NCBI GenBank assembly: GCA_031426215.1
Contig: JANPKU010000021.1
Coordinates: 656-64,655, forward strand
DNA: 64,000 nt
Reading direction: 5' to 3'
Source of the DNA: Actinomycetes bacterium
Lineage (GTDB): Bacteria; Actinomycetota; Acidimicrobiia; Acidimicrobiales; Ilumatobacteraceae
The stretch's first letter is position 1. Every line of letters starts with the position of its first letter. Below, in pieces: positions 7,000 through 56,390 of this stretch. The position numbers and the translations under genes are program-made. The notes under the pieces were generated by a model. It saw only the letters and a list, made by a program, of their open reading frames with translations, did no database searches and was not told where the DNA came from.

Positions 7000-7076
7000 T
7001 GGCGCCCCCGGCAGGATTCGAACCTGCGACCTTGTCATTAGAAGGGACTTGCTCTGTCCAGCTGAGCTACAGGGGC
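7000..7076 (-). tRNA. tRNA-Arg (anticodon UCU), CCA encoded
   Basis: Manual 77-nt cloverleaf: GCCCCTG TA GCTC AGCTGGACA GAGC A AGTCC CTTCTAA TGACA AGGTC GCAGG TTCGAAT CCTGC CGGGGGC G CCA. Acceptor, D and T stems pair well. The anticodon stem has only 3 central Watson-Crick pairs. Confidence 0.75.
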
Positions 7077-10305: not shown

Positions 10306-11259
10306 TCAGGCCTGGGTCGAGCGGAACTTCTCCATCAGGTGACGTCCGGCCGTGGTGGGCTCGTGACGTGCTGTTTCACCGTCGTCGATGATGCACTCGA
10401 TGCGCGCATCCCAGTTCGCGTTGTGGAAGAACGGGATCGACAACCTGCGTCCTGGAGCGCCGGGCACGACACGATGCATCGTCGAACACCACCGGTCGTT
10501 GGTCCAACGCTGCATCAGATCGCCGAGGTTCACGATCAGCCCACCCTCGACCGGCTCCACGTCGCACCAACTGCCGTCGACCGACTCGACCTGCAGACCC
10601 GGCGCGCCATCGGTCCACAGGATCGTCAGCGTGCCGTAGTCGGTGTGAGCGCCTGCCCGAAGGCTTGCGACCGTGGACCCCGCTTCGACGTCGGGGTAAT
10701 GGGCGAGTCGCAGGGCCGATCCGTGACGGTCGATGTGCCGGGCGAACGCATCGTCGGCCAAGCCGAGCGCCACAGCGAAGGCCTCCATCAGCGTCGCCGA
10801 CAGCGAGGCCATCGCCCGATAGTGCGCCTCGACCGCCGGACGGAGTTCCGGGAGTGCCGGCGGCCACAGGTTCCGCGCGTACACCGCACGCTCGTCGGGG
10901 TCGACCATCTCATCGAGGGGTCGAAGTGGCGGGTCGATCGGTCCGACGTTGAAGGTCTCCTTCAGGTCGGGCGGTGCCTCACCGCCGAGCGAGCGGTTGA
11001 GCGCCTCTGCCTGCAACGGGCTGTAGCCGTACGGGTACCCGGGTTCAGGCATTGCGACGGCGAGCCGAGCCTCCAGCGGGAGGTCGAAGAACGCGAGGGC
11101 CAACCTGTGGAGCTCCTCCAGCAGCGCCGAATCGACTCCGTGTCCGATCAGGGTGAAGAAGCCAACATCGCGACATGCCCGGTCGATCGCCTCACCCACG
11201 GCGCCTCGCTGGTCGGTCGAGCCGCCGACGAAGTCGCTCAGATCGATGACCGAGATCAC
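10306..11259 (-). CDS. 2-oxoglutarate/Fe(II)-dependent oxygenase (isopenicillin-N-synthase-like)
   Basis: GTG at 11259 overlaps the upstream stop (GTGA) and gives 317 aa starting VISVIDLSDF. Has the HTDYGTLTIL His-x-Asp motif and a distal STMHRV His. Confidence 0.85.
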   Translation of the reverse strand: MISVIDLSDFVGGSTDQRGAVGEAIDRACRDVGFFTLIGHGVDSALLEELHRLALAFFDLPLEARLAVAMPEPGYPYGYSPLQAEALNRSLGGEAPPDLKETFNVGPIDPPLRPLDEMVDPDERAVYARNLWPPALPELRPAVEAHYRAMASLSATLMEAFAVALGLADDAFARHIDRHGSALRLAHYPDVEAGSTVASLRAGAHTDYGTLTILWTDGAPGLQVESVDGSWCDVEPVEGGLIVNLGDLMQRWTNDRWCSTMHRVVPGAPGRRLSIPFFHNANWDARIECIIDDGETARHEPTTAGRHLMEKFRSTQA

Positions 11260-12206
11260 TGGTGGGCGAGGCGCAGACCGGGTCGGGGCCACGGGAACGA
11301 CACGAGTCGCCCGGTACTCGAACACGTCACGTACGCGGTACGCAGATCGTCGCCGCCGAAGCAGATGTTCGTGGTGAGCAGGTCGCCGGTGGCGTAGTGC
11401 TCGACCTGGGATCCGTCGGGAGAGATCGCCGTGATGCCCCCGTTGAAGATCGTTGCGACACACACCCAGCCCTCACCGTCGACGGCGAGGGAGTCGAGGA
11501 ACTGGTAGCCGGGAAACCCGTACAGCACGCCGGGATCGAGCAGGTTGGAGGGTGCGAGTTCACCGGGTGATGTGATCGAGCGCTGGAACAAGCGGCCGGT
11601 GTGCGTTTCGGCCCAGTACAGCGTGTTGGCGTCGGGCGACATGCCGATGCCGTTCGGCGAGTCGGTCGGGAACACGGCCTCGACGATGCCGGAACCATCA
11701 GCGTGGGCGTAGTACACGCCGGTGAGATCCGCGGTGCGGGCGTGTTCGTCACGGATGCCGTGGTCGGTGAACCAGAACCCGCCGTGACCGTCCATCACCA
11801 GGTCGTTGGGGCCCCGGAGGGACTGTCCGTCACACTCGGTGTAGAGGTCGGTGATCGTGCCGTCGTGCGCATCGACACGCTGGATCCGACCGCCGAGATA
11901 GTGATCGGCGTCGAAACCACCTGTGGGCAGCATCATGCCGCCGAGATCGACGGGGGTGAACGAACCACCGTTGTTGCACAGATAGAACGCGCCATCGGGC
12001 CCGACGGCGGCACCGTTCGGGCCGCCGGGGATGTCGGCGATCGTTTCTGTGGTGCCATCGGGATGCACCCTGGTCAATCGTGGTCCGAACATCTCGACCA
12101 GCACGATCGAACCATCGGACATCCAGATCGGCCCCTCGGGGAACTCGAGGCCGCTCGCGACCTCGGTCAGCTCGGGGGTGAATGCGGTGACGTTCGGCTG
12201 GTCCAT
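11256..12206 (-). CDS. SMP-30/gluconolactonase/LRE-family protein
   Basis: Beta-propeller-like repeats (FPEGPIWMSDGS, GPNGAAVGPDG, PNDLVMDGHGGFWFTD, PNGIGMSPD). ATG 12206 is preferred over 12275, because codon 12275 lies in the loop of the hairpin at 12252..12300. Confidence 0.8.
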   Translation of the reverse strand: MDQPNVTAFTPELTEVASGLEFPEGPIWMSDGSIVLVEMFGPRLTRVHPDGTTETIADIPGGPNGAAVGPDGAFYLCNNGGSFTPVDLGGMMLPTGGFDADHYLGGRIQRVDAHDGTITDLYTECDGQSLRGPNDLVMDGHGGFWFTDHGIRDEHARTADLTGVYYAHADGSGIVEAVFPTDSPNGIGMSPDANTLYWAETHTGRLFQRSITSPGELAPSNLLDPGVLYGFPGYQFLDSLAVDGEGWVCVATIFNGGITAISPDGSQVEHYATGDLLTTNICFGGDDLRTAYVTCSSTGRLVSFPWPRPGLRLAHQ

Positions 12207-24461: not shown

Positions 24462-24956
24462 ATGGCTGAAGTCACCCTCGGGGGAAACCCCGTACACACG
24501 TCCGGAGATCTCCCCGCGATCGGTGCAGTTGCACCCGCCTACTCCCTGGTCGGCACCGACCTCGGCGAGTACGACGCCTCGGCGTTCGCCGGGAAGAACG
24601 TGATCCTCAACATCTTCCCGAGTGTCGACACCCCGACATGTGCCACGAGCGTTCGCCAGTTCAACGAGCGCGCCGCCGGCATGGACGACACCGTGGTGGT
24701 GTGCGTGTCCGCCGACCTTCCGTTCGCCATGGGCCGCTTCTGTGGTGCCGAGGGCATCGAGAACGTCAAGGTCGGCTCGACCTTCCGCTCCAGCTTCGGT
24801 GCCGACTACGGCGTCACGCTCACCGACGGCAAGCTGCAAGGCGTGCTCGCCCGTGCAGTCGTGGTGATCGGCCCCGACGGCACGGTCAAGCACAACGAGC
24901 TCGTCGCCGAGATCGCCCAAGAACCGAACTACGACGCCGCTCTCGCCGCTCTCTGA
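24462..24956 (+). CDS. tpx: Thiol peroxidase (Tpx, atypical 2-Cys peroxiredoxin)
   Basis: 164 aa. FPSVDTPTCA peroxidatic Cys motif and the resolving Cys context (VCVSADLPFA). Confidence 0.95.
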   Translation: MAEVTLGGNPVHTSGDLPAIGAVAPAYSLVGTDLGEYDASAFAGKNVILNIFPSVDTPTCATSVRQFNERAAGMDDTVVVCVSADLPFAMGRFCGAEGIENVKVGSTFRSSFGADYGVTLTDGKLQGVLARAVVVIGPDGTVKHNELVAEIAQEPNYDAALAAL

Positions 24957-25828
24957 TCACAGGTGTCATCTCGATTGGGGTCAGACCCCAATCGAGATCG
25001 GCCGGCGAAGACCAGATCGGTTGCGCATCGTGCGACGTCCGAGAGGGCCGGATCGCTCCGCAGCTTGTTTCGAGCTCGCGATGCAGCACATCTCCATGCG
25101 TTGCTGCCGCTCATTCCCAGCATCTCGGCGACCAATGCCTGATCGGTCTGCGAGCGATCGAGAACCCACGAGATCAGCACCGATCGTGCGTTCGCGGGTG
25201 CGGCGGAGGAGTCCATTCGTTCGGCGAGAACGATCGAGACCGCCTCGAACAGCATTCGGACCTCAGCGATTGTCAGAGCGCTCGGACACGTGCCCGCCTC
25301 GTTGCGGACGAATCGATCGAATGCAGTTGCATCGTATTCGAAGTGCTCCAGGACCTCGCCAGTTCGTAGCCACGACGGCGGCGAACGAAATCCGAGATAA
25401 GTCCGATGACTCGACCAGCGGTAGCCGGATGGGTCCGCGACTCCCGGCACGTCGAGCGCATTGCGATGGATGTACCGGCAAGCGGCGAGCAGGTACTCAT
25501 CGGACTCGATTCGGCGGGAATGAAAGCGGCCTCGGAAGAGCGCCCCATCTCGACCGAGGCGATCGTTGACACGGCGGGTGTAGATGGACCCAATGCGTTG
25601 CATCGCCTCCGAGAGCCCACCGTCGGGACAATGGACGAGAAGGTGATAGTGGTTGTCCATGAGGCAGTACGCGTACATCGACACTCCGAAGCGATCGTGG
25701 ACGTCGGCCAAGCGTTGCCCGAACTCGATCCGATCTCGGTCGTGGAAGTACACGGTGCCGTGGTCGATGCCACGATTCATCACGTGGTACAGGCCGTCTT
25801 CGATGTCTGGACGAAGTTGTCTGGGCAT
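24929..25828 (-). CDS. REP-associated tyrosine transposase-like protein (Y1/HUH, IS200/IS605 superfamily) with extra C-terminal helical region
   Basis: HUH motif DNHYHLLV and Tyr motif CRYIHRNAL. ATG 25828 (MPRQLRPD). The frame reads through palindrome copy a and stops 28 nt inside antisense tpx. Confidence 0.8.
   Translation of the reverse strand: MPRQLRPDIEDGLYHVMNRGIDHGTVYFHDRDRIEFGQRLADVHDRFGVSMYAYCLMDNHYHLLVHCPDGGLSEAMQRIGSIYTRRVNDRLGRDGALFRGRFHSRRIESDEYLLAACRYIHRNALDVPGVADPSGYRWSSHRTYLGFRSPPSWLRTGEVLEHFEYDATAFDRFVRNEAGTCPSALTIAEVRMLFEAVSIVLAERMDSSAAPANARSVLISWVLDRSQTDQALVAEMLGMSGSNAWRCAASRARNKLRSDPALSDVARCATDLVFAGRSRLGSDPNRDDTCDQRAARAAS
24968..24998. repeat. REP-like 31-nt perfect palindrome, copy a (centre A)
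   Basis: ATCTCGATTGGGGTC A GACCCCAATCGAGAT. Lies 11 nt after the tpx stop and inside the 3' end of the RAYT reading frame. Confidence 0.9.
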
Positions 25829-25855
25829 CAGACCATCATGACGAAGGGGTGTCAC

Positions 25856-25886
25856 ATCTCGATTGGGGTCTGACCCCAATCGAGAT
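25856..25886. repeat. REP-like 31-nt perfect palindrome, copy b (centre T)
   Basis: ATCTCGATTGGGGTC T GACCCCAATCGAGAT. Directly abuts the dapB stop codon (tca 25887..25889). Confidence 0.9.
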
Positions 25887-26657
25887 TCAGTCGAGGAAGG
25901 GGTCGAGGGAGCGACTCAGGCCTGGCACGACTGGAATCTTCTTGCAGGCAAGGATGACACCGGGCATGAAGCTCTCGCGGTCGTAGCTGTCCTGTCGGAT
26001 CGTCAGGGTCTGGCCCTGGGCTCCGAGAATCACCTCTTGGTGCGCGACCATGCCCCGCATGCGGACCGAGTGCACCCTGATGCCGTTCGGACCAAGCCCC
26101 CCGCGAGCACCGGCATAGACCTCGTCGGTGGTCGGATCCTCGCCGAACTCGCCACCTCGGGCGGCGCCCATTCGCTCGGCGGTCTTCACCGCCGTACCCG
26201 ATGGGGCATCGACCTTGCGGTCGTGGTGCAACTCGATGATCTCAGCGGTATCAAAGAACGGCGCCGCCATCTCGGCGAACCGCATCATCAGCACGGCAGA
26301 AATCGCGAAATTCGGGGCGATGACACAGTTGGGTCCGTCGGCGTTGCCGAAGGCCGCCTCGAACAGTTCGAAGTCGGCGACGGTGAACCCGGTGGTGCCG
26401 ACAACGGCGTGGATTCCGTGTTCGGCGAGCACTGGCAACAGCGCACGAGACGCATCGGCGACCGTGAAGTCGACCACGACGTCGCACGATGCATCGGCGA
26501 ACGCATCCGACGATTCGCTCACCACGACGCCTTCGATCGCTTTGCCGACTCCGAACTGGTCGACCGCGGCGACGAAAACGAGATCGGGGTCAGCAGCCAC
26601 CGCCGCACAAACGGTTCTCCCCATTCGTCCGGCGGCGCCGCTGACCCCAATTCTCAT
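25887..26657 (-). CDS. dapB: 4-hydroxy-tetrahydrodipicolinate reductase
   Basis: 256 aa. N-terminal MRIGVSGAAGRMG Rossmann motif and ELHHDRKVDAPSGTA catalytic motif. Confidence 0.95.
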   Translation of the reverse strand: MRIGVSGAAGRMGRTVCAAVAADPDLVFVAAVDQFGVGKAIEGVVVSESSDAFADASCDVVVDFTVADASRALLPVLAEHGIHAVVGTTGFTVADFELFEAAFGNADGPNCVIAPNFAISAVLMMRFAEMAAPFFDTAEIIELHHDRKVDAPSGTAVKTAERMGAARGGEFGEDPTTDEVYAGARGGLGPNGIRVHSVRMRGMVAHQEVILGAQGQTLTIRQDSYDRESFMPGVILACKKIPVVPGLSRSLDPFLD

Positions 26658-32183: not shown

Positions 32184-32828
32184 TCAGGTGAAGTCGGGGG
32201 CGACCCGGTTGGATCGCTTGAGTTCGGCCATGCCGGACATGGTGGCCAGCTTCTCGATGGCGTCCCAGAGTTCGACCGCCTCGACGCCACGCGGCGCCTT
32301 GGAGATCACCGGGCCGAAGAAACTCGCCTCGTTCCCGGCGCCGGGATGGAACGTGAGGATCGGCGTGCCGACATCCTTGCCCGTTCGGCTCAGCGCCAAC
32401 TCGGTGTCGGCACGGATGTACGCATCGTGCGACTCGTCATCGGCGGCGTCGAGACACCCGGCGTCGAATCCATTGGCCGACAACAGACCGCCGTACCACC
32501 CGAGACCGTCGCTGCGAGCCGCTTCGCGCTGCGCATCAGCGTGCAACGCGGTGCCGACCGCTGTGTACCAACGACCGACGGCCGATGGGTCGTCGTCGCC
32601 GAGCCGAATGGCGTCGGCGATGCGAAGTCCCTGCTGGCCGAGGTAGTGACCTGCGCGGTATTGCGGCGTGTACCACTCCTGGGTGTTGTTCTCGTTGAGG
32701 ATCCACAACGAGATGAACCGCCAGTCGACCTCGTAGTCACGCTGCTCGCTGACATTGGTGACCCACCTCGAGGTGATCCACGCCCACGGACAGACAGGAT
32801 CAAAGAAGAAGTCCAGATCGGCGGCCAC
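32184..32828 (-). CDS. DsbA-family thioredoxin-fold protein, Rv2466c/mycoredoxin-2-like, with CPWA instead of CPWC
   Basis: 214 aa. FFFDPVCPWAWITSRWV...GTPILTF...FFGPVISKAPRGVEAVELWD matches my recollection of M. tuberculosis Rv2466c along its length. Confidence 0.75.
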   Translation of the reverse strand: MAADLDFFFDPVCPWAWITSRWVTNVSEQRDYEVDWRFISLWILNENNTQEWYTPQYRAGHYLGQQGLRIADAIRLGDDDPSAVGRWYTAVGTALHADAQREAARSDGLGWYGGLLSANGFDAGCLDAADDESHDAYIRADTELALSRTGKDVGTPILTFHPGAGNEASFFGPVISKAPRGVEAVELWDAIEKLATMSGMAELKRSNRVAPDFT

Positions 32829-38173: not shown

Positions 38174-38206
38174 CAACAAACAAGGCGTGGGGCTCAGCCC
38201 CACGCC
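38174..38206 (-). promoter_or_regulatory. Intrinsic-terminator-like hairpin plus U-tract in the rimP-nusA leader (candidate attenuator)
   Basis: Minus strand reads GGCGTGGGGC TGA GCCCCACGCC TTGTTTGTTG, immediately followed by the rimP RBS (AAAGGAGG). Confidence 0.55.
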
Positions 38207-38234
38207 TTTCGGTACCAAACCAAATGGAGAGATG

Positions 38235-45682: not shown

Positions 45683-46693
45683 GTGGCAACGCTGGGTCCG
45701 GCGAGCGTGTCGCCGTCGGCCGCTGCGACATCGAGTTCGTCTCCTCCCTGGTCGCCGGCGACGGCAACGGCTGGCGGTTGGGCGGCCGGCCCGCCGACCG
45801 AGACCGTCGCCGAACTCCTGCGCACACTGGAACTCACCATCACGGGCCGCCTCGATGGCGTGCTCCACGGGCAGTACCAGGGACTCACGCCGGGCCACGG
45901 TTCCGAGCCCGGCGAATCACGGCTCTATCAGCCGGGCGACGACGTACGCCGCATCGATTGGAACATCACGGCGCGAACGCAGGAGACCCACGTGCGTGAG
46001 CAGATCGCGGACCGCGACCTCACGGCGTGGCTGGTCGTCGACGTGTCCGCCACCATGCAGTTCGGCACCGTCTCCAACGACAAGGCCCAGATCGCCACGG
46101 CCGCTGCCGCATGCATCGGCTTTCTCACCGCCCGCAACCAGAACCGACTCGGGGCCGTGCTCGTCGCAGGCCCGTCGATCCACGTGGTGCCGCCTCGTTC
46201 GGGTTCGAATCAGGTGCGTGCGGTGCTGTCGTTGCTCAGCGCTCCGCCCGTGTCCGAAGGACTCGGCCAGGCCGACCTCGCAGGCGCCATCGATCGGGTC
46301 GGCGCCATCGCCAACCGCCGCGGGTTCGTCGCCGTCATCAGCGACTTCCGGGGCGACGACTGGCAGCCGGCGCTCGCCCGACTGAGCCTGCGCCACGACT
46401 TGCTCGCCATCACCGTCCACGATCCTCGCGAATACGACGTTCCCCCGATCGGACTGGTCGAGGTGATCGATCCGGCAACCGGCGCGAGGCGAGAGGTCCG
46501 GGTGACCGCACAGGTGCAGGAGCGCTTCGCCGCCGCGGCGTCGGATCAACGCAACCGGCGCACCGATGCACTCGGGCGGTCACGCGCCGACGTGATCGAA
46601 TTGTCGACCGATGCCGACTGGCTCGGCGCGATCGTGCAGCACACCCAGCGCCGGCGGGTTCAGGCGGTTCGTGGCGATGGGATCGGACGATGA
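45683..46693 (+). CDS. DUF58 domain protein
   Basis: GTG 45683 lies 3 nt after the MoxR stop. G.G.E....R.YQPGDDVRRIDWN..AR is the DUF58 hallmark. Confidence 0.85.
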   Translation: MATLGPASVSPSAAATSSSSPPWSPATATAGGWAAGPPTETVAELLRTLELTITGRLDGVLHGQYQGLTPGHGSEPGESRLYQPGDDVRRIDWNITARTQETHVREQIADRDLTAWLVVDVSATMQFGTVSNDKAQIATAAAACIGFLTARNQNRLGAVLVAGPSIHVVPPRSGSNQVRAVLSLLSAPPVSEGLGQADLAGAIDRVGAIANRRGFVAVISDFRGDDWQPALARLSLRHDLLAITVHDPREYDVPPIGLVEVIDPATGARREVRVTAQVQERFAAAASDQRNRRTDALGRSRADVIELSTDADWLGAIVQHTQRRRVQAVRGDGIGR

Positions 46694-47670
46694 GTACGGA
46701 CTTCCTCGCGCCCGGTCGGCTCTTGTTGCTGCTGGTCGTGGCGGCTCTCGCCGTGTTGTACGTGGTCGTGCTGCGCTGGCGCAAAGCCGCGACCGTGCGC
46801 TTCACCCAGGTCGACCTGCTCGACAAGGTGGCCCCGCAACGCCCGCGTTGGCGTCGACACGTCGTGGCCGCACTGCAATTGCTCGGGCTCGCCTTCGCCG
46901 TGGTCGCCGTTGCTCGACCGGTCGAACGCACCACCGAGAACACCACGACCGAGGGACGCATCCTGGTGCTGTTCGACGTGTCGTTGTCGATGATGGCCGA
47001 CGACGTGGCGCCACGCCGTTTCGAGGCAGCCCAGGAGGCGGCACGGGACTTCGTCGATCTCGTCGACCCCGGCGTCGAAGTGGGTCTGATCGGATTCTCG
47101 GGTGCGGTGAGCGTCGACGTCGATCCGACCCTCGATCGCGCGACGATGCTGCGCGGCATCGACAATCTCGAGCTCGCCGAATCGACCGCGATCGGCGATG
47201 CTCTCTCCGCCGGAACGAGACTGCTGGTCAACGCAGCCGACCCGAACGACGATTCAGATCTTCCGCCCGGCGTGATCGTGCTGCTCAGCGATGGCGAAAC
47301 CACCGTCGGCAGCCTGACGTCCGACGGCGCAGCCGAGGCCGCTGATGCGGGCATCCCCGTGTACACGATCGCGTTCGGTACGGAGGGCGGGTCGATCCAG
47401 GATCCGGAGACCGGCGAGATCGTGCCGGTGCCGGTGCGGCCGGCCGACCTCGAGCTCGTCGCCGAAACCACCGGCGGTCAGGCCTTCGAGGCACGTACGG
47501 GGGACGAGTTGGCGAGCGCCTACGACCAGATCGCCGAATCGCTTGGCGAGACGATCGGCGACCCCGTCGAGATCATCACCGAGCTCACGTGGCGCTGGGC
47601 GCTCGCCGCCTTCCTCTGTCTCGGACTTGCCTGGGCGCTGAGCCTCTGGTGGCTGCGCGGCATGGTCTGA
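46690..47670 (+). CDS. VWA-domain membrane protein (BatA-like)
   Basis: ATG 46690 overlaps the DUF58 stop (ATGA). N-terminal TM pair, MIDAS-like DVSLSM, C-terminal TM. Confidence 0.85.
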   Translation: MSTDFLAPGRLLLLLVVAALAVLYVVVLRWRKAATVRFTQVDLLDKVAPQRPRWRRHVVAALQLLGLAFAVVAVARPVERTTENTTTEGRILVLFDVSLSMMADDVAPRRFEAAQEAARDFVDLVDPGVEVGLIGFSGAVSVDVDPTLDRATMLRGIDNLELAESTAIGDALSAGTRLLVNAADPNDDSDLPPGVIVLLSDGETTVGSLTSDGAAEAADAGIPVYTIAFGTEGGSIQDPETGEIVPVPVRPADLELVAETTGGQAFEARTGDELASAYDQIAESLGETIGDPVEIITELTWRWALAAFLCLGLAWALSLWWLRGMV

Positions 47671-47671
47671 C

Positions 47672-47710
47672 GAAATGAAACGGAGAGGTCTGACCCCTCG
47701 GTTTCATTTC
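47672..47710. terminator. 39-nt near-perfect palindrome between the convergent VWA gene and the LLM oxidoreductase gene
   Basis: GAAATGAAACGGAGAGGTC T GACCCCTCGGTTTCATTTC has 2 mismatches in 19-nt arms. The centre GGTCTGACCCC is identical to the centre of REP copies b and c. Confidence 0.65.
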
Positions 47711-48752
47711 AGAGGAGCGACTTGAGCTGGTCGATCGTCTTGACGGCATCGGCACCGACGGGGTTCACCGAGAGATGGGTGACGCCCGCCTCCTGGAACG
47801 CAGCGATGCGCTCCTTGACGTACCCGGCCGGTCCGACCAGGTTCGACTTCTCGAGCAGGTCGCTCGGTACCGCCGCCGCCGCCTCGTCCTTCTTCCCGGA
47901 CAGGTAGAGGTCCTGGATCTCGGCGGCCTCGTCGACGTAGCCGTAGCGCTGACAGATCGTGTTGTAGAAGTTCTTGTCGCGGGCCCCCATCCCGCCGATG
48001 TACAACGCGGCGCTCGGGCGCGCGAGGTCGAGGAGGCGCTTCTGCGCGTCACCGGTGAGCTCGTCACCGATCGCCACCATGCCCCCGGCGGAGATCTGGA
48101 GGCGCCCGAGGTCGGGATCGCGTTCGGCGGTGCCTGCCTTCAGGTCATCGCCCCACACCGACTGGAACTTGTCGGGGTCGAAGAAGATCGGCAGCCAGCC
48201 GTCGGCGTACTTCGCAGTGTTCTTCACCGACTGACCCATCAGGCTCGCCCAGAAGATCGGGATGTGCTCGCGCACCGGGTGGTTGATCAGCTTCAACGGT
48301 TTGCCGAGGCCGGTTCCCTCACCCTCGGGAAGCGGGATCGTCGTGGTCGGGCCGTCGTAGATCACCTTCTCGCGCCGCCAGGTCATCCGGCACACGTTGA
48401 TGTAGTCGCGGATACGGGGCATCGGCTTGTCGTAGGGCACCCCGTGGAACCCTTCGATCACCTGTGGTCCGGATGCACCGAGTCCGAGGATGAAGCGACC
48501 GTTCGACACGTAGTCGAGGCCTGCCGCGGTCTGCGCCATGCACGTGGCCGTGCGCGAGAACACGTTGAGGATGCCGGACCCGATCTCGATCGTGGAGGTC
48601 TTGGCCGCCAGGAAGCCCATCTGCGAGACGGCGTCGAAGCTGTACGCCTCGGGGACCCAGACCACGTCGAGGCCGGCCTTTTCGAGTTCGACGACCTTGT
48701 CCACGTCTGCGTGGAAGTCGCCGGAGTAGTTGATGGACATCGAGAGCTTCAT
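47709..48752 (-). CDS. LLM-class (luciferase-like) F420-dependent oxidoreductase
   Basis: ATG 48752 (MKLSMSINYSG). TIM-barrel LLM features (VWVPEAY, GSGILNVFSRT, RFILGLGASGPQV). Confidence 0.85.
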   Translation of the reverse strand: MKLSMSINYSGDFHADVDKVVELEKAGLDVVWVPEAYSFDAVSQMGFLAAKTSTIEIGSGILNVFSRTATCMAQTAAGLDYVSNGRFILGLGASGPQVIEGFHGVPYDKPMPRIRDYINVCRMTWRREKVIYDGPTTTIPLPEGEGTGLGKPLKLINHPVREHIPIFWASLMGQSVKNTAKYADGWLPIFFDPDKFQSVWGDDLKAGTAERDPDLGRLQISAGGMVAIGDELTGDAQKRLLDLARPSAALYIGGMGARDKNFYNTICQRYGYVDEAAEIQDLYLSGKKDEAAAAVPSDLLEKSNLVGPAGYVKERIAAFQEAGVTHLSVNPVGADAVKTIDQLKSLL

Positions 48753-48813
48753 GGCGCCGAACGATATTGGCGCGCGCCCGGGTGGTTGCAGTCGGACGAC
48801 AACCCCCGCCAGT

Positions 48814-49647
48814 TCAGCCGTTGAGGTTGCCGGTGCGGAAGCCTTCGAGATCGAGCGTGACGTAGCGGTAGCCCGCACCCGACACTGCGGCCACGATCGC
48901 CTCACGGTCGGCGAGAACCTGCTGCAGCTGGTCGAGTTCGACCTCGATGCGTGCCGTGTCGCCATAGTGGCGGATTCGAACCTGGGCGAAGCCGAGCCGG
49001 TGCAGCGCCGCCTCCGCTCGATCGACCCGACCGAGGATCTCGACCGACACCTCGGTGCCATACGGAATACGACTCGCCAGACACGCCGCCGCCGGCTTGT
49101 CCCAGGTGCGCAGGCCCAACACTCTGGACGCTTCGCGCACGTCGGCCTTCGTGAACCCCGCCGTCACCAACGGGAACTCCGCGCCCGCTTCGGATGCGGC
49201 TCGTTGGCCAGGCCGGTGGTCGCCGAGATCATCGACGTTCACACCGAGCACCACGACGGCCCCCTCGGCCGCGGCGATCGGGGCGACCACGTCCATCAGC
49301 TCGGCCTTGCAGTGATAGCAACGATCAGTGTCGTTCAGCCGGTACGCAGCACGCTCCATCTCGTCGGTGGCGACCGGCGTCCAGCGCAGACCCCACTCGG
49401 TCGCCAGCGAACGACAGTCGCGCTCCTCATCGCCGGCCAACGATGGCGACACGGCGGTGACCGCATGGGCGTGTTCGGCGCCGAGCACCCTCGTTGCGGC
49501 TGCTGCGAGGAACGCAGAGTCGGCGCCCCCGCTGAATGCGACGACCAGACGACCGAGTCGGAGCAGCTCGAGGTGCAGACGGCCGAGCTTGACGACGAGC
49601 GACGGCGAGAGATCAGCGGCGTCGACCTCTGATTCGGACAGGATCAC
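48814..49647 (-). CDS. PP-loop ATP-pyrophosphatase, LarE-like sulfur transferase family
   Basis: 277 aa, GTG start. PP-loop VAFSGGADS and DRCYHCK, as seen in LarE/TIGR00268-type proteins. Confidence 0.7.
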   Translation of the reverse strand: MILSESEVDAADLSPSLVVKLGRLHLELLRLGRLVVAFSGGADSAFLAAAATRVLGAEHAHAVTAVSPSLAGDEERDCRSLATEWGLRWTPVATDEMERAAYRLNDTDRCYHCKAELMDVVAPIAAAEGAVVVLGVNVDDLGDHRPGQRAASEAGAEFPLVTAGFTKADVREASRVLGLRTWDKPAAACLASRIPYGTEVSVEILGRVDRAEAALHRLGFAQVRIRHYGDTARIEVELDQLQQVLADREAIVAAVSGAGYRYVTLDLEGFRTGNLNG

Positions 49648-52273: not shown

Positions 52274-54415
52274 ATGAACATGCCGAAGTGGTGGAACCAG
52301 CGGCGATTCGGCATCTTCGTCCACTCGAGCCTGGCGACGGTGCCGGCCTGGGCACCGATCGGTGAGTACTCCGAGTGGTACCGCAGCCATCTCGGCGAGG
52401 ACGTGGCCGACGCGCTGCTCCACCCACGTCCGATGGTCGAAGTGCTAGCGCATCATCGCGACCGGTGGGGCCACATCGAGCACTACGACGACTTCATCTC
52501 TCTGCTCGGCTACGACCGCTTCGACCCCGAGGACTGGGCACGGCTCATCGCCGATGCGGGAGCCGGCTACAGCGTGTTCGTGGCAAAGCACCATGACGGA
52601 TGGTCGTGGTGGGACGCACCGAACACCGACCGGACGATGTTGAACGGCGGTCCTCGTCGCAACGTGATGGCCGAGTTCGCCGCCGCATGCGAACGAAACG
52701 ACATCGTGTTCGGCACCTACTACTCGCTGCTCGATTGGGGCGACGGGCGCTTCCCCGAGCCGTCCTACGTCAGCGAGGTGTTGCACCCGCACGTGATCGA
52801 CCTCGTCGAGCGGTACGGCTCGAGCGTGTTGTGTGGTGACGGACACTGGGGACATGGCCCGGAACTCTGGCGCACGCGCGAACTGCTCGAGCAGATCTGG
52901 GCGATCGATCCCGACGTGGTGGTGAACGATCGTTGGTGGGCTTCGGCCGATGACGTCCCGGCCGGGAGTCCGCCGCTGGTGCGCACGTTCGAGTACGAGG
53001 CGCCCGACGAGATCATCGACGAACCATGGGAGCTGTGCCGCGGAATCGGGTCGAGCTTCGGACACAACCGCGCCGAACGCATCGAACACCATTTGTCGGG
53101 TTTCGACATCGTGGCGCTGCTGACGGACGTCATCGCCAAGGGCGGCCATCTGCTGCTCAACGTCGGGCCGGCGGCCGACGGCACGATTCCCGAGCTGCAA
53201 CGTGGTCCCCTCGAGTCAGCCGGGCGGTGGATCCGGGAGCACCAACGGCTGATCGACGAGTCGACACCGTGGCACACCTGGGGCGACGACGATGTCAAGT
53301 ACGTGCAGCTCGACGGCTCCGTGCACGCCGTCGACCTCGCAGGTCGCGGTCGCTTCGCGGCGATCACCCCCGACCGCTACCGAGTGACGGTGGTGGAACG
53401 CGATGGGTCGCAGGTCGCCTTCCATCAGAGCGACGACGGCGTGCGTGTCGCCGGTGAGCGCTCGGCGCGTCGGGCGAACGCTGCACGAGTCGATGACATC
53501 TCGGTGTACCGGCTCGAACTCACTGCAGTGGATCGCCCTGTCGAGCTGTTCGAACCGCAACCGCGACGACCGATTCAACTCGCACCATTGCTGCGAGACG
53601 CTCACCCTGGTGACATCGTGCAACTCGGCGACGGCACCTACATCGGCCCGGTCACGGTGCCGGCGGGCGTGATCGTGCGCGGTCTCGGAGCGTCACGTAC
53701 GACGATCGACGGCGGCGGCTCCACGGCCGTCGTCCTCGAACGGAACGCCCGCCTCGAACATCTCCGAGTCGGCGGCGGACCGTCTCGTCTGGCCTGGTTC
53801 CCGTGCCCGGTCGTCGAGGTTCTCGGCCCGTACGCCACGCTGCTCGGGTGCCGTCTCGACGGCCACGCCGTGGTGAGTGCCGACGACGTGATCATCCGAG
53901 CGACCGCGGCGGTCGGTGTCATCGCCAACGGCGCCGACCGCCTCACGGTGTCGCGGAGCCAGTTCCGAGGAATGCGATGGGATGTCGGTGTGCACCTGAT
54001 CGGCGGCAGCGGGCACGAGGTCGATTCGTGCGAGTTCCACGACCATCTGTGTGGCATACGGGCGAGCGAGACGACCGGCACGATCGTGCGGGGCAACAAC
54101 GTGTCCGCACGATGGTGGGGCATCCACCTCGAGCAAACCGAGGGCGCCCACGTGTACGGCAACTTCGTCGATCACACGATGCGGGGCATCGACGTCGACG
54201 GCGGCACCCAGGCGGTCGTCGACGGCAATGCGGTGTGTGACGGTGACAGCGGTTGCATCGTCGAGTGGGGGGCGTCGGACTGTCAGGTCAGCGGCAACCG
54301 TTGGGAGCGCTGCCGCATCGGCGTGCTGTCGTGGGACGTGACCGACCTCCACGCCCACGACAACGAGGCCATCGACCTCCACGAACCCGAAGCCACCCAC
54401 ACCACCGGGCCGTGA
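52274..54415 (+). CDS. GH29 alpha-L-fucosidase fused to a right-handed parallel beta-helix domain
   Basis: N-terminal FGIFVHSS, KHHDGWSWWD, YYSLLDWG, LLLNVGPAADGTIP. The C-terminal ~270 aa has repeated G-N-x-V/I..N beta-helix-like turns (GNNVSARWWGIHL.., GNFVDHTMRGIDV.., GNAVCDGDSG..). Confidence 0.8.
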   Translation: MNMPKWWNQRRFGIFVHSSLATVPAWAPIGEYSEWYRSHLGEDVADALLHPRPMVEVLAHHRDRWGHIEHYDDFISLLGYDRFDPEDWARLIADAGAGYSVFVAKHHDGWSWWDAPNTDRTMLNGGPRRNVMAEFAAACERNDIVFGTYYSLLDWGDGRFPEPSYVSEVLHPHVIDLVERYGSSVLCGDGHWGHGPELWRTRELLEQIWAIDPDVVVNDRWWASADDVPAGSPPLVRTFEYEAPDEIIDEPWELCRGIGSSFGHNRAERIEHHLSGFDIVALLTDVIAKGGHLLLNVGPAADGTIPELQRGPLESAGRWIREHQRLIDESTPWHTWGDDDVKYVQLDGSVHAVDLAGRGRFAAITPDRYRVTVVERDGSQVAFHQSDDGVRVAGERSARRANAARVDDISVYRLELTAVDRPVELFEPQPRRPIQLAPLLRDAHPGDIVQLGDGTYIGPVTVPAGVIVRGLGASRTTIDGGGSTAVVLERNARLEHLRVGGGPSRLAWFPCPVVEVLGPYATLLGCRLDGHAVVSADDVIIRATAAVGVIANGADRLTVSRSQFRGMRWDVGVHLIGGSGHEVDSCEFHDHLCGIRASETTGTIVRGNNVSARWWGIHLEQTEGAHVYGNFVDHTMRGIDVDGGTQAVVDGNAVCDGDSGCIVEWGASDCQVSGNRWERCRIGVLSWDVTDLHAHDNEAIDLHEPEATHTTGP

Positions 54416-54418
54416 CGC

Positions 54419-54449
54419 ATCTCGATCGGGGTCTGACCCCAATCGAGAT
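54419..54449. repeat. REP-like palindrome, copy c (centre T, one arm mismatch)
   Basis: ATCTCGATCGGGGTC T GACCCCAATCGAGAT. Starts 3 nt after the GH29 stop and abuts the typA stop. It has the same GAGATTCAG junction as copy b. Confidence 0.9.
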
Positions 54450-56390
54450 TCAGGCGGACTGGCTGCGGCGCTTGGCTTCGCGGGCGCGGTTGGTCGGGTC
54501 GAGGTCGGCCTTGCGCAGCCGGATGTTCTGCGGGGTGACCTCGACGGACTCGTCGTCGGCGATGAACTCGAGCGCACCCTCCAACGACAGCACGCGATGC
54601 GGTGTGAGCTTGACCGTTTCGTCGGCCGACGCAGCACGCACGTTGGTCATCTTCTTCTCACGACAGATGTTGACGTCCATGTCGCCGGCGCGTGAGTTCT
54701 CGCCGACGATCATGCCGCAGTAGACCTCCGCGCCGGGGCCGACCATCATCGAGGCCCGGTCCTGGAGGTTCATCATGGCGTAGGTGGTCGCCGGACCCGT
54801 GCGGTCGGCGACGAGCACGCCGGTCTGACGCGAGCGGATCTCGCCGGCCCACGGTTCGTAGCCCTCGAAGGTGTGGCTGATCACGCCGGTGCCGCGGGTC
54901 TCGGTGAGGAACTCGGTACGGAAACCGATGAGCCCACGCGCCGGCACGAGGTAGTCGAGGCGAACCCAGCCCGAACCACCCATGTTCTGCATCCGCCCTT
55001 TGCGGGTGGCGAGCAGCTGGGTGACGGCGCCGAGGTGATCGTTGGGGACGTCGATCGTGACCCGCTCGACGGGTTCGTGGACCTTGCCATCGATCTCGTG
55101 GGTGAGCACCACCGGCTTGCCGACGTTGAGCTCGAAACCTTCGCGGCGCATCTGTTCGACGAGGATCGCCAGCTGCAGCTCACCACGGGCTTGTACTTCC
55201 CAGGCGTCGGGTCGCTCGGTGGGGAGCACGCGGATCGACACGTTGCCGACCAGCTCGGCGTCGAGACGGTTCTTGACGAGGCGGGCGGTCAGCTTCTTGC
55301 CCTCGCGGCCGGCGAGCGGTGACGTGTTGATGCCGATCGTCATCGACAGCGCCGGCTCGTCGACGGTGATCACGGGCAGCGCGACCGGGTTCTCGGGATC
55401 GGCCAGTGTCTCGCCGATGTAGATCTCCTCGATACCGGCGACCGCGACGAGGTCGCCTTGACGGGCTCCGTCGACGGGGACGCGGGTGAGATGCTCGGTG
55501 AGGAACAGCTCGGCGATCTTCGCCCGTGCAATCGTGCCGTCTCGCTTGCACCAGGCAACGGACTGGCCCTTCTTGATCTCGCCTTCCATGATGCGCAGGA
55601 GTGCGAGTCGGCCGAGATATGGCGAGGCGTCGAGGTTGGTCACCCATGCCTGCAACGGTGCGCCCTCGTGGTAGGTCGGCGAGGGGATGTGCTCGAGCAG
55701 GACCTCGACGAAATCGTGCAATGTCTTCTTCTCGACCGTGCCGGCGATGATGCCGTGTGCTTCGTCGAGGTCGAGCGTCGCCCAACCCTCGCGACCCGAG
55801 CAGTACACGATCGGGAACTCGACCTGATGCTCCTTGGCGTCGAGATCGAAGAACAGTTCGTATACCTCGTCGATCACCTCGAGGGTGCGGGCGTCGGCGC
55901 GGTCGACCTTGTTGATCACGAGGATCACGGGCAGGTTGCGAGCGAGCGCCTTACGCAGCACGAACCGGGTCTGCGGCAGCGGACCCTCGGCAGCGTCGAC
56001 GAGCAGGACGATGCCGTCGACCATGGTGAGCGCTCGTTCGACCTCACCACCGAAGTCGGCGTGGCCGGGCGTGTCGACGATGTTCAGTGTGATGTCGTCG
56101 CCGTTGCGCTCGTCGTGCCAGACGAGCGAGGTGTTCTTGGCGAGGATCGTGATGCCCTTCTCGCGTTCGAGGTCGCCGGAGTCCATGACGCGTTCGGCGA
56201 CTTCTTCGTTCGAGCGAAACGCACCGGACTGGTGCAGCATGGCGTCGACGAGGGTGGTCTTGCCGTGATCGACGTGCGCGACGATCGCCAGATTGCGGAT
56301 GTCGGTGCGGCGACGGATGGTTGCCGGGTCGGCGACATCGGTGTCGACGCCGGTCGGGTCCTCGAGAAGGGTCTGGTCGTGGGGGGACAC
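54450..56390 (-). CDS. typA: Translational GTPase TypA/BipA
   Basis: 646 aa, GTG start. [38 protein letters not shown]. Confidence 0.95.
   Translation of the reverse strand: MSPHDQTLLEDPTGVDTDVADPATIRRRTDIRNLAIVAHVDHGKTTLVDAMLHQSGAFRSNEEVAERVMDSGDLEREKGITILAKNTSLVWHDERNGDDITLNIVDTPGHADFGGEVERALTMVDGIVLLVDAAEGPLPQTRFVLRKALARNLPVILVINKVDRADARTLEVIDEVYELFFDLDAKEHQVEFPIVYCSGREGWATLDLDEAHGIIAGTVEKKTLHDFVEVLLEHIPSPTYHEGAPLQAWVTNLDASPYLGRLALLRIMEGEIKKGQSVAWCKRDGTIARAKIAELFLTEHLTRVPVDGARQGDLVAVAGIEEIYIGETLADPENPVALPVITVDEPALSMTIGINTSPLAGREGKKLTARLVKNRLDAELVGNVSIRVLPTERPDAWEVQARGELQLAILVEQMRREGFELNVGKPVVLTHEIDGKVHEPVERVTIDVPNDHLGAVTQLLATRKGRMQNMGGSGWVRLDYLVPARGLIGFRTEFLTETRGTGVISHTFEGYEPWAGEIRSRQTGVLVADRTGPATTYAMMNLQDRASMMVGPGAEVYCGMIVGENSRAGDMDVNICREKKMTNVRAASADETVKLTPHRVLSLEGALEFIADDESVEVTPQNIRLRKADLDPTNRAREAKRRSQSA

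Follow-up and report, generated by a model that had tools for sequence, protein, structure and literature searches.

A probable REPtron of the TnpA_REP subclass 2.1/TIRYT type at a fixed locus in Ilumatobacteraceae

A 64,000-nucleotide stretch of an Ilumatobacteraceae assembly (GCA_031426215.1, contig JANPKU010000021.1, positions 656 to 64,655), referred to below as the window, carries a long gene for a Y1 transposase between the genes dapB and tpx. We identify this locus, with a probability of roughly 80%, as a REPtron of the TnpA_REP subclass 2.1 or TIRYT type: a single-copy, domesticated-looking REP-associated tyrosine transposase (RAYT) gene at a fixed position, encoding a Y1/HUH nuclease-ligase for single-stranded DNA with a C-terminal domain like domain IV of DnaA, and bracketed by inverted copies of its cognate repetitive extragenic palindrome (REP). 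The flanking REPs are also dispersed, in the window and in metagenome contigs, and the gene is present once. The RAYT gene itself does not transpose and stays between dapB and tpx. The kind of system is already known; what is new is the actinobacterial host lineage and the association with REPs.

A RAYT or REPtron architecture had been proposed from the letters alone, in what we call the sequence-only reading. It is borne out by the dispersed REPs and by the best structural match of the protein, and subclass 2.1/TIRYT is a better label for the locus than the classical RAYTs with GTAG-tagged REPs, by architecture as well as by repeat motif.

The RAYT gene and its protein

The RAYT open reading frame (ORF) contains the HUH and catalytic tyrosine motifs that the sequence-only reading had recognised in it (Table 1). 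The Pfam family Y1_Tnp (PF01797) matches residues 14-123 (E = 2.7e-10, 40.8 bits against a gathering cutoff of 23), and this score, together with the HUH motif and the catalytic tyrosine, places the protein in the Y1 HUH superfamily. H60, H62 and Y119 are invariant in an alignment of 104 sequences that includes the window protein, which has the same residue as the others at every invariant column. The RAYT-type serine motif, YRWSS, is present and nearly invariant among the homologues. Disabling changes, which had been named as a possible objection, are thus absent from the invariant columns, and between the window gene and its homologue at locus L207 the ratio of nonsynonymous to synonymous substitution rates (dN/dS) comes to 0.17 for each of the two domains. 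Purifying selection acts on the gene, which is intact. There is one copy of it in the 64-kb window, the extent over which gene and REP copies of the source genome were counted, and no tnpB accompanies it.

The gene had looked less GC-rich than its neighbours by eye, and it is: its GC content is 0.612 against 0.664 for the window (0.5th percentile among 900-nt windows), and its GC at third codon positions (GC3) is 0.69 against 0.78-0.88 in neighbouring genes. The GC3 of the RAYT homologues is below that of their neighbours in all five relatives tested. Since the low GC3 is common to the syntenic homologues of these five relatives, low GC is no evidence of recent arrival, and recent horizontal acquisition is rejected as its source.

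A full-length AlphaFold2 model built on 104 homologues has a predicted local distance difference test score (pLDDT) of 89.4; residues 279-299 score below 50 and are predicted to be disordered. Its best Foldseek match in the PDB is 4ER8_A, with a template modelling (TM) score of 0.73 normalised to the target and 158 aligned columns against a chain of 165 residues. This is the Escherichia coli TnpA_REP/RAYT protein YafM, in a structure with a REP hairpin bound to the transposase. The matches that follow are the TnpA proteins of IS608, ISDra2 and IS200. The predicted model has, then, a RAYT-like fold, the helices specific to RAYTs included.

The extra C-terminal region that had been described as helical and helix-turn-helix (HTH)-like gives a confident model of five helices when residues 176-278 are modelled alone (pLDDT 90.5). 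The top PDB matches of this model, 3PVP, 1J1V and 8BTG, are DnaA DNA-binding domains with HTH folds (TM 0.5-0.67, probability up to 0.98, weak E values of 0.4-1.7). As modelled, the domain resembles domain IV of DnaA. A profile of the domain found 60 representatives among 1.84 billion proteins, and in these it is always C-terminal in proteins of about 270-300 aa or occurs in fragments. The domain could grip the hairpin stem, target the protein to replication forks or serve in autoregulation.

The reading frame had been said to run through the left palindrome and to end 28 nt inside antisense tpx. This is correct: the ORF translates the palindrome (..SRLGSDPNRD..), ends with TAG at 24929..24931 and overlaps tpx from 24929 to 24956. 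The tail ..GSDP..AARAAS, produced by read-through into antisense tpx, recurs in about half of the homologues, and most other Ilumatobacteraceae-type homologues stop at a TGA in the centre of the REP, ending in ..TSRV or ..STGV. The ORF of a Bacteroidales locus ends in ..AIGV, also through a TGA in the REP centre (GGG GTC TGA). The RAYT ORF therefore lacks its own stop codon, and the read-through that had seemed an odd detail is a family trait. Within the overlap the third codon positions of tpx and RAYT are in register, which partly explains why the antisense tail (..QRAARAAS) is near-constant among RAYTs that are about 50% identical.

Palindromic repeats in the window

The two repeats that bracket the gene are perfect 31-nt palindromes (15+1+15) at the coordinates and with the centres that the sequence-only reading had given, and they are the longest perfect palindromes anywhere in the window. 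A search allowing three mismatches finds three copies of the 31-mer in the window and none in 100 shuffles. Folded as single-stranded DNA (ssDNA), each REP is a hairpin whose stem of 14 bp is closed by a loop of 3 nt, with dG between -15.3 and -15.7 kcal/mol and z between -5.5 and -6.1. By the centre base the two flanking copies are inverted relative to each other, as had been noticed. Where relatives have asymmetric REPs, the flanking pair is likewise inverted; in L125 the two copies are exact reverse complements, so that they are true inverted repeats. The motif GGGGTCAG, which fits GGGG[AT][CG]A[CG], is found in both flanking repeats on opposite strands. A plus-strand prefix GGTGTCA had been claimed for both. 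Of this, GGTGTC is shared and lies 2 nt farther from the palindrome on the right; the seventh base is out of register, the A on the left being the first base of the palindrome, and the right REP is preceded by GGTGTCAC.

The right REP directly adjoins the dapB stop codon (25887..25889), as had been claimed. The third REP lies about 29 kb from the RAYT locus at the 3' end of typA, a minus-strand gene whose stop codon (54450..54452, read as TCA) it directly adjoins; the stop of the convergent 713-aa ORF (54413..54415) is 3 nt away on the other side. An orthologue of the typA-side REP is present in the metagenome contig L193. A terminator scan of the window called none of the REPs, and no T-tract of the kind that marks an intrinsic terminator comes after them. 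An Rfam search placed no known RNA family at the repeats, and a literature string search for GGGGTCAGACCCC or GGGGTCTGACCCC found no paper in the library containing either.

The conserved leader that runs from the upstream REP to the RAYT start codon contains a part, ACACCCCTTCGTCATGATG, that is kept in L122, L124 and L246 despite the differing REP arms beside it. Its function is probably that of an expression signal or of a part of the recognition or cleavage region. On the other side, the 11 nt that separate the tpx stop from the REP probably derive from the arm of an older REP: the spacer reads ..GACCCCTGGCGTGATCAGAG in L121 and L123, GACCCGTGGCGGGATCAGAG beside a window-type REP in L207 and only ..CCTGTGATCAGAG in the window. 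The arm at the downstream REP of L207 is recognisable as the REP type of L121 and L123, and the remnant in the window is shorter.

Table 1. Positions of the RAYT gene, its protein regions, the REPs and adjoining features in the window.
Feature	Position	Strand	Details
RAYT ORF	24929..25828	-	299 aa; MDNHYHLLV, AACRYIHRNAL
RAYT residues 1-175, Y1/HUH catalytic domain	25304..25828	-	Pfam PF01797; H60-Y-H62, putative catalytic Y119 (YIHRN), YRWSS 136-140
RAYT residues 176-278, C-terminal five-helix domain	24995..25303	-	DnaA-domain-IV-like (HTH) fold, from model
RAYT residues 279-299 and stop, read-through tail	24929..24994	-	encoded by downstream REP and antisense tpx
REP upstream of RAYT gene	25856..25886	.	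ATCTCGATTGGGGTC-N-GACCCCAATCGAGAT; centre T on plus strand, A on RAYT strand
REP at 3' end of RAYT ORF	24968..24998	.	ATCTCGATTGGGGTC-A-GACCCCAATCGAGAT; centre A on plus strand
Dispersed REP copy	54419..54449	.	1 mismatch, centre T; between 713-aa ORF and typA
Leader between upstream REP and RAYT start codon	25829..25855	-	GTGACACCCCTTCGTCATGATGGTCTG on RAYT strand
Spacer from tpx stop to REP	24957..24967	.	11 nt; probable remnant of older REP arm
Empty REP site	32184..32185	.	spacer between Rv2466c-like gene and rbfA

A dispersed family of hairpins

Metagenome contigs were scanned with the window REP, with two wobble positions seen in the third copy. The scan returned at least 124 matches at at least 120 loci, in at least 68 distinct flank contexts. 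With these and the third window copy, the palindrome is not restricted to the RAYT locus, a possibility that the sequence-only reading had left open. Among the 120 loci listed only L207 also carries a RAYT, 87.6% identical to that of the window. A long ORF has its stop codon within 40 nt of the REP on at least one side in 109 of the 123 matches listed, and the distances peak at 0-2 nt. Beyond stop codons, the flanks of the 68 listed contexts contain no target-site consensus. The 20-kb loci of syntenic relatives hold up to three extra REPs each, all just 3' of genes.

The REPs of different genomes share a core, GGGGTC-N-GACCCC (6+1+6), which is invariant across the genomes compared, and the outer 8-9 bp are lineage-specific yet complementary. 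The outer left arm reads ATCTCGATT in the window, GTGTCAACT in L124, GATCACGCC in L121 and L123, GTTACGCC in L122 and GTTACATC in L125. Over 29 REPs, 92% of cells pair, compared with 25-43% in slid controls. All nine variable stem pairs change on both sides, and double changes fill 66 cells against 19.6 in shuffles, with the 6-bp core invariant. At stem position 7 most lineages have an A.A mismatch, and the window and L124 have a T-A pair. A REP with the same core is present upstream of the RAYT in every relative compared at the DNA level, and in these syntenic loci the upstream REP has centre A and the downstream REP centre T on the RAYT strand.

In the relatives whose REPs are asymmetric through the A.A mismatch at position 7, all seven dispersed copies (L121 at 9104 and 13811; L122 at 637, 9115 and 11458; L123 at 782 and 16846) carry A as their centre base when read on the strand that codes for the gene that they trail. 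A general rule to this effect was considered and rejected: it holds for 3 of 3 REPs in the window and 7 of 7 in L121-L123, yet the window-type REPs of the metagenome split into 25 A and 22 T. In many metagenome copies (L149, L155, L157, L163, L175, L203, L219 and L235) an extra half-arm, GACCCCGATCGAGAT or a near variant, comes right after the REP and gives it three arms; such REPs may have arisen by slippage or through faulty processing by the RAYT.

The same core in other phyla

Genomes of GTDB were scanned with the pattern ATYGGGGTCNGACCCCRAT, the core with 3 nt on each side. The matches listed, at least 120, come from Burkholderiales, Gammaproteobacteria, Bacteroidales, Clostridia, Acidobacteriota, Planctomycetota and Actinomycetota, and nearly all of them extend into longer palindromes whose outer arms are specific to the lineage. 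Five of the 8-kb loci, from Comamonadaceae, two Burkholderiaceae, Butyrivibrio and Bacteroidales, have a RAYT homologue next to the core palindrome. Four of these homologues are complete, at 220-273 aa, and the fifth is cut by the end of the locus.

Two other arrangements of the core were seen. In a metagenome-assembled genome (MAG) of Pseudomonadota (L075, 76..164) there is a tandem array of 35-bp units, each with ATCGGGGTCTGACCCCGAT, in which the core is repeated head-to-tail. Same-core inverted doublets 43-47 nt apart, which resemble the paired REPs known as REPINs, occur at L008 7870/7917, L077 6858/6904 and L089 5274/5317; their hosts are another actinobacterial MAG and a Bacteroidales MAG.

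Comparison with known systems

TIRYT genes are longer RAYT-like genes flanked by inverted repeats that share GGGGWSAS; these terminal inverted repeats (TIRs) include self-complementary ones of moderate abundance and ones, called 3'ov, that reach into the 3' end of the gene (Di Nocera, De Gregorio & Rocco 2013, BMC Genomics 14:522). TIRYT has been equated with TnpA_REP subclass 2.1, which is defined by a C-terminal Bac_DnaA_C/HTH-like extension suggested to target replication forks (Quentin, Siguier, Chandler & Fichant 2018, BMC Genomics 19:475). The same survey reported no REP-like sequences near subclass 2.1 genes and only IS200-type genes in the Actinobacteridae sampled.

The window locus agrees with this group in its long Y1 protein with a C-terminal extension, DnaA-like here by predicted fold only, and in the position of the gene between inverted repeats, whose motif here is GGGGTCAG. 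As in the 3'ov type, the ORF overlaps the downstream repeat at its 3' end, and the repeats are self-complementary and form a family of moderate abundance, as do some TIRs. Unlike the repeats of subclass 2.1 as surveyed in 2018, each repeat here is a stable, covarying hairpin with dozens of dispersed copies. The host also differs, being an Ilumatobacteraceae-like member of Acidimicrobiia, and the C-terminal domain is undetected by the Pfam HTH or DnaA models.

The E. coli TnpA_REP/RAYT and its GTAG-tagged REPs, which make up bacterial interspersed mosaic elements (BIMEs), were reportedly described by Nunvar in 2010, by Ton-Hoang in 2012 and, with the structure 4ER8, by Messing in 2012. The window locus shares with this system the HUH, Y and W-S-S motifs, a single-copy gene bracketed by REPs and the extragenic position of the REPs near gene ends. 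The proteins are only about 14% identical, and that of the window is about 135 residues longer through its extra domain. The window REP also differs from the E. coli REP/BIME in being a perfect 15+1+15 palindrome with no tag and no bulge.

REPIN-RAYT systems of Pseudomonas, Enterobacteria and Neisseria (Bertels & Rainey 2011, 2017, 2022) resemble the window locus in their single-copy RAYT, its residence in the same extragenic space, the purifying selection on it and the covariation of REP sequence type with RAYT allele. The REPs described here are singlets rather than inverted doublets. In published work RAYTs are held to be inherited vertically, in congruence with the host; in the present family the RAYT phylogeny is incongruent with that of the flanking genes, and the block has been replaced. 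With the IS200/IS605 TnpA proteins of IS608 and ISDra2 the window protein shares the catalytic fold and, by inference, the chemistry on ssDNA hairpins. It differs from them in being encoded at a fixed position, the same in nine relatives, by a gene found once in 64 kb and without tnpB, and in its RAYT motifs and extra C-terminal domain.

A fixed locus with exchanged alleles

A search for homologues gave 1,692 proteins, about 280-300 aa long and in many cases automatically named RayT, the best being 86% identical. The named homologues come from Ilumatobacteraceae or from MAGs of Actinomycetota. All nine RAYT-bearing relatives examined have the homologue at the position it has in the window. The order pnp-dapB-RAYT-tpx(antisense)-213-aa gene is complete in seven loci (L121-L125, L246 and L247); in P0002 the homologue is just downstream of dapB, and in L207 it is convergent with tpx. 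Of the earlier statement that the unit is inserted between tpx and dapB, the position stands and recent insertion does not, the position being conserved in nine relatives.

The alleles at this address do not follow the genes around them. L246 and L247 are two independent assemblies, and their backbone is close to that of the window: between the window and L246, pnp is 99% identical in protein (0.12 synonymous substitutions per site, dS), dapB 95% (dS 0.16), tpx 96% (dS 0.22) and the 213-aa gene 94% (dS 0.18), and an AMP-binding gene on L247 is 99.6% identical to its counterpart in the window. The RAYT of L246 is 55% identical, at a dS of about 2.3. DNA identity falls from 90-100% to 40-73% exactly between the dapB and tpx stops. 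The last dapB codons (PFLD against PFL before the stop) and the tpx stop codon (TGA against TAG) differ as well, and the L246 RAYT is flanked by a different REP, GGGACAACAcGGGTC-N-GACCCGTGTTGTCCC, a type also written GGGACAACACGGGTC-N-GACCCGTGTTGTCCC. Within one allele the rate is ordinary, with a dS of 0.38 for RAYT and 0.35 for tpx between the window and L207. The RAYT alleles of seven genomes are mutually 52-64% identical irrespective of the identity of their flanks (78-96%); L207 has a more distant tpx yet the RAYT allele of the window, and L246 has a closer one yet a different allele. We conclude that the whole REP-RAYT-REP block has been replaced at a fixed address between near-identical backbones.

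The block divergence could instead reflect very fast evolution in place, as in an arms race between RAYT and REPs, which would agree with alleles that are about equally distant whatever the distance of their hosts and with a leader by the start codon that is conserved across alleles. Synonymous sites are saturated in the RAYT and not in pnp, dapB, tpx or the 213-aa gene, the rate is normal within one allele lineage, and the distribution of alleles in L207 and L246 is incongruent with the flanking genes. Saturation and incongruence argue for block replacement, and we regard fast evolution in place as improbable.

The REPs also turn over at sites away from the RAYT. The spacer between the Rv2466c-like gene and rbfA is empty in the window, and at the orthologous site L246 has 46 extra nt that include a window-type REP, with both sides about 95% identical; the empty and filled states show a recent gain or loss of a REP. 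L122 and L123 carry their own REP types in this spacer, and in L163 a window-type REP and an L246-type REP lie 20 nt apart. The mixed types in the rbfA spacer, in L163 and in the tpx-side remnant indicate that REP families turn over and that new copies land beside old ones.

The relative L248 (dapB 80% identical) has no RAYT between dapB and tpx and no REP core in 20 kb; in this one relative without the gene the palindrome is thus missing too. The place of the RAYT is taken in L248 by a PIN toxin, a PhdYeFM antitoxin and a DUF4262 gene (10839..11969), with tpx inverted, and the interval therefore looks like a hotspot for accessory genes. Whether the dapB protein ends in ..PFLD or in ..PFL goes with the REP/RAYT allele next to it (window 25887..25895; L121-L125, L246), and in several relatives a REP arm overlaps the dapB stop codon (TGATCA). 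As the end of dapB varies with the REP allele, the turnover of REPs edits the ends of neighbouring proteins.

Proposed mechanism

The steps below are modelled on E. coli TnpA_REP and IS608; the scheme of REP binding, cleavage and resealing is said to go back to Messing and Ton-Hoang in 2012 and Corneloup in 2021. When single-stranded, for example on the lagging-strand template, the REP would fold into its hairpin with a stem of about 14 bp. The protein would recognise the invariant apical GGGGTC-N-GACCCC together with the lineage-specific lower stem; the core is likely to be the protein-recognition element and the variable lower stem the allele-specific determinant. Cleavage beside the hairpin would proceed through a 5'-phosphotyrosine at Y119, with a metal held by H60 and H62, and rejoining of the strands would copy or move the REP. 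By analogy with these systems we infer that this RAYT moves these REPs. The copies that survive would be almost only those right behind stop codons, where they may double as hairpins at RNA 3' ends, a plausible secondary role.

We further propose, tentatively and at somewhat less than even odds, that the REP-RAYT-REP block serves as a specificity cassette which can be exchanged at a single chromosomal address. Deeply diverged alleles, all with REP stems of their own, would circulate in Ilumatobacteraceae and be swapped between the last codons of dapB and tpx, leaving orphaned REP families behind as new ones spread, and subclass 2.1 would be a REP-mobilising clade with one core from Bacteroidales to Actinomycetota. 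Such swaps would explain why L246 has window-type REPs and a different RAYT, why L163 has two REP types and why a REP arm is decaying on the tpx side.

Weighing the interpretation

Several results weigh against a REPtron of this type. On the side of the protein, the NCBIfam equivalog NF047646 (REP_Tyr_transpos) scores 55 bits (E = 8e-15), below its cutoff of 80, and the class-2 motif Y---NP reads Y119-IHR-N123-A124, that is Y---NA; N123 is invariant across homologues, and the residue after it is P in some. Sequence searches of the PDB with the protein, the family profile and the N-terminal domain matched no chain. The Foldseek E values behind the DnaA-like assignment are non-significant, and Pfam searches of the C-terminal domain in 28 members gave noise only (such as DUF5576, E = 0.019), with no match to the Bac_DnaA_C, HTH_23 or HTH_28 models. 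On the side of the repeats, there is no GTAG or CTAC in or beside any of the three window REPs, which are therefore not classical GTAG-tagged REPs, and these and most metagenome matches are singlets, not the inverted pairs within about 130 bp that form REPINs. A perfect palindrome also offers a strand-specific enzyme almost no asymmetry beyond its centre base. Finally, L246 has window-type REPs, yet the RAYT between its dapB and tpx is a different allele with a different REP, so that the assignment of one REP to one RAYT is not strict.

If the palindromes were above all operators in double-stranded DNA, bound by a protein dimer through the DnaA-like HTH for autoregulation or chromosome organisation and with ssDNA cleavage only vestigial, a dimeric binder would select just such a perfect dyad whose core is invariant, the DnaA-IV-like fold would be under the purifying selection seen, and one REP would stand where it does, immediately upstream of the gene beside a conserved leader. 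The compensatory changes of the outer stem are the signature of a folded single strand rather than of a base-specific operator, and the A.A mismatch at stem position 7, kept in most relatives, is meaningful only in a hairpin. H60, H62 and Y119 remain invariant, and the TIR motif is unlike a DnaA box (Quentin et al. 2018). We consider a predominantly operator role unlikely. It is clearly less probable still that the palindromes serve gene ends as plain bidirectional transcription terminators or insulators, with the nearby Y1 gene incidental. Nearly all REP copies do lie 0-8 nt behind stop codons, often between convergent genes, their hairpins are stable, and hairpins without U-tracts serve as terminators in Actinobacteria. 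Independent terminators would not, however, repeat one 31-nt sequence at 68 or more sites, nor keep a 13-nt core unchanged from phylum to phylum, always with a RAYT homologue alongside. The missing T-tract, the silence of the terminator scan and the presence/absence polymorphism at an orthologous site point the same way, and a terminator role may be a secondary, exapted function of the REPs.

The Y1 transposase fold, the hairpins at both ends and the GC and GC3 below those of neighbouring genes would also suit an autonomous IS200/IS605-type element recently inserted between tpx and dapB. Such an element would hardly fill the same position in nine relatives with RAYTs that are mutually only 52-64% identical, and the low GC3 is shared by the homologues of five relatives. 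The single gene copy in the window, the presence of a RAYT in only 1 of the 120 REP loci listed, the lack of tnpB and the dN/dS of 0.17 make a recent insertion of this kind marginally harder still to credit than plain terminators.

Significance

RAYT/REP systems have been studied almost entirely in Proteobacteria, and the window extends the host range to Acidimicrobiia with a complete system and a clear repeat family. The sequence-only reading had called the find unusual for Actinobacteria, which holds against the 2018 survey, where no class-2 (RAYT-type) genes were found in high-GC Actinobacteridae, and less so against the databases, which already hold more than 1,600 homologues. The supposedly REP-less subclass 2.1/TIRYT is here linked to real hairpin repeats with one cross-phylum core, a DNA substrate for biochemistry. 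Block replacement between genomes otherwise about 95% identical challenges strictly vertical inheritance of RAYTs, and orphaned REP families and empty or filled sites form a natural experiment on RAYT-REP specificity. If the cassette proposal is true, swaps drive the genome-wide turnover of REP families. The annotation of gene ends in these compact genomes is affected by REPs that lie only 0-2 nt away from stop codons and by REP loops in which the RAYT ORF finds its stop.

Other features of the window

The 38-nt gap between the convergent ORFs 46027..47670(+) and 47709..49061(-) is filled by a different, imperfect palindrome at 47663..47702, GAAATGAAACGGAGAGGTC-T-GACCCCTCGGTTTCATTTC, with a degenerate REP-like core, GAGGTCTGACCCC. 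This could be an old REP or one of a second type. At 38182..38208 an AT-richer spacer holds a perfect palindrome, AAGGCGTGGGGCT-C-AGCCCCACGCCTT, whose arms are 13 nt long and which has no relation to the REP family. With TTGTTTGTTG after it on the minus strand, it has the look of a classical intrinsic terminator. A tRNA gene at 7003..7076(-) is the sole Rfam match in the window at the gathering threshold.

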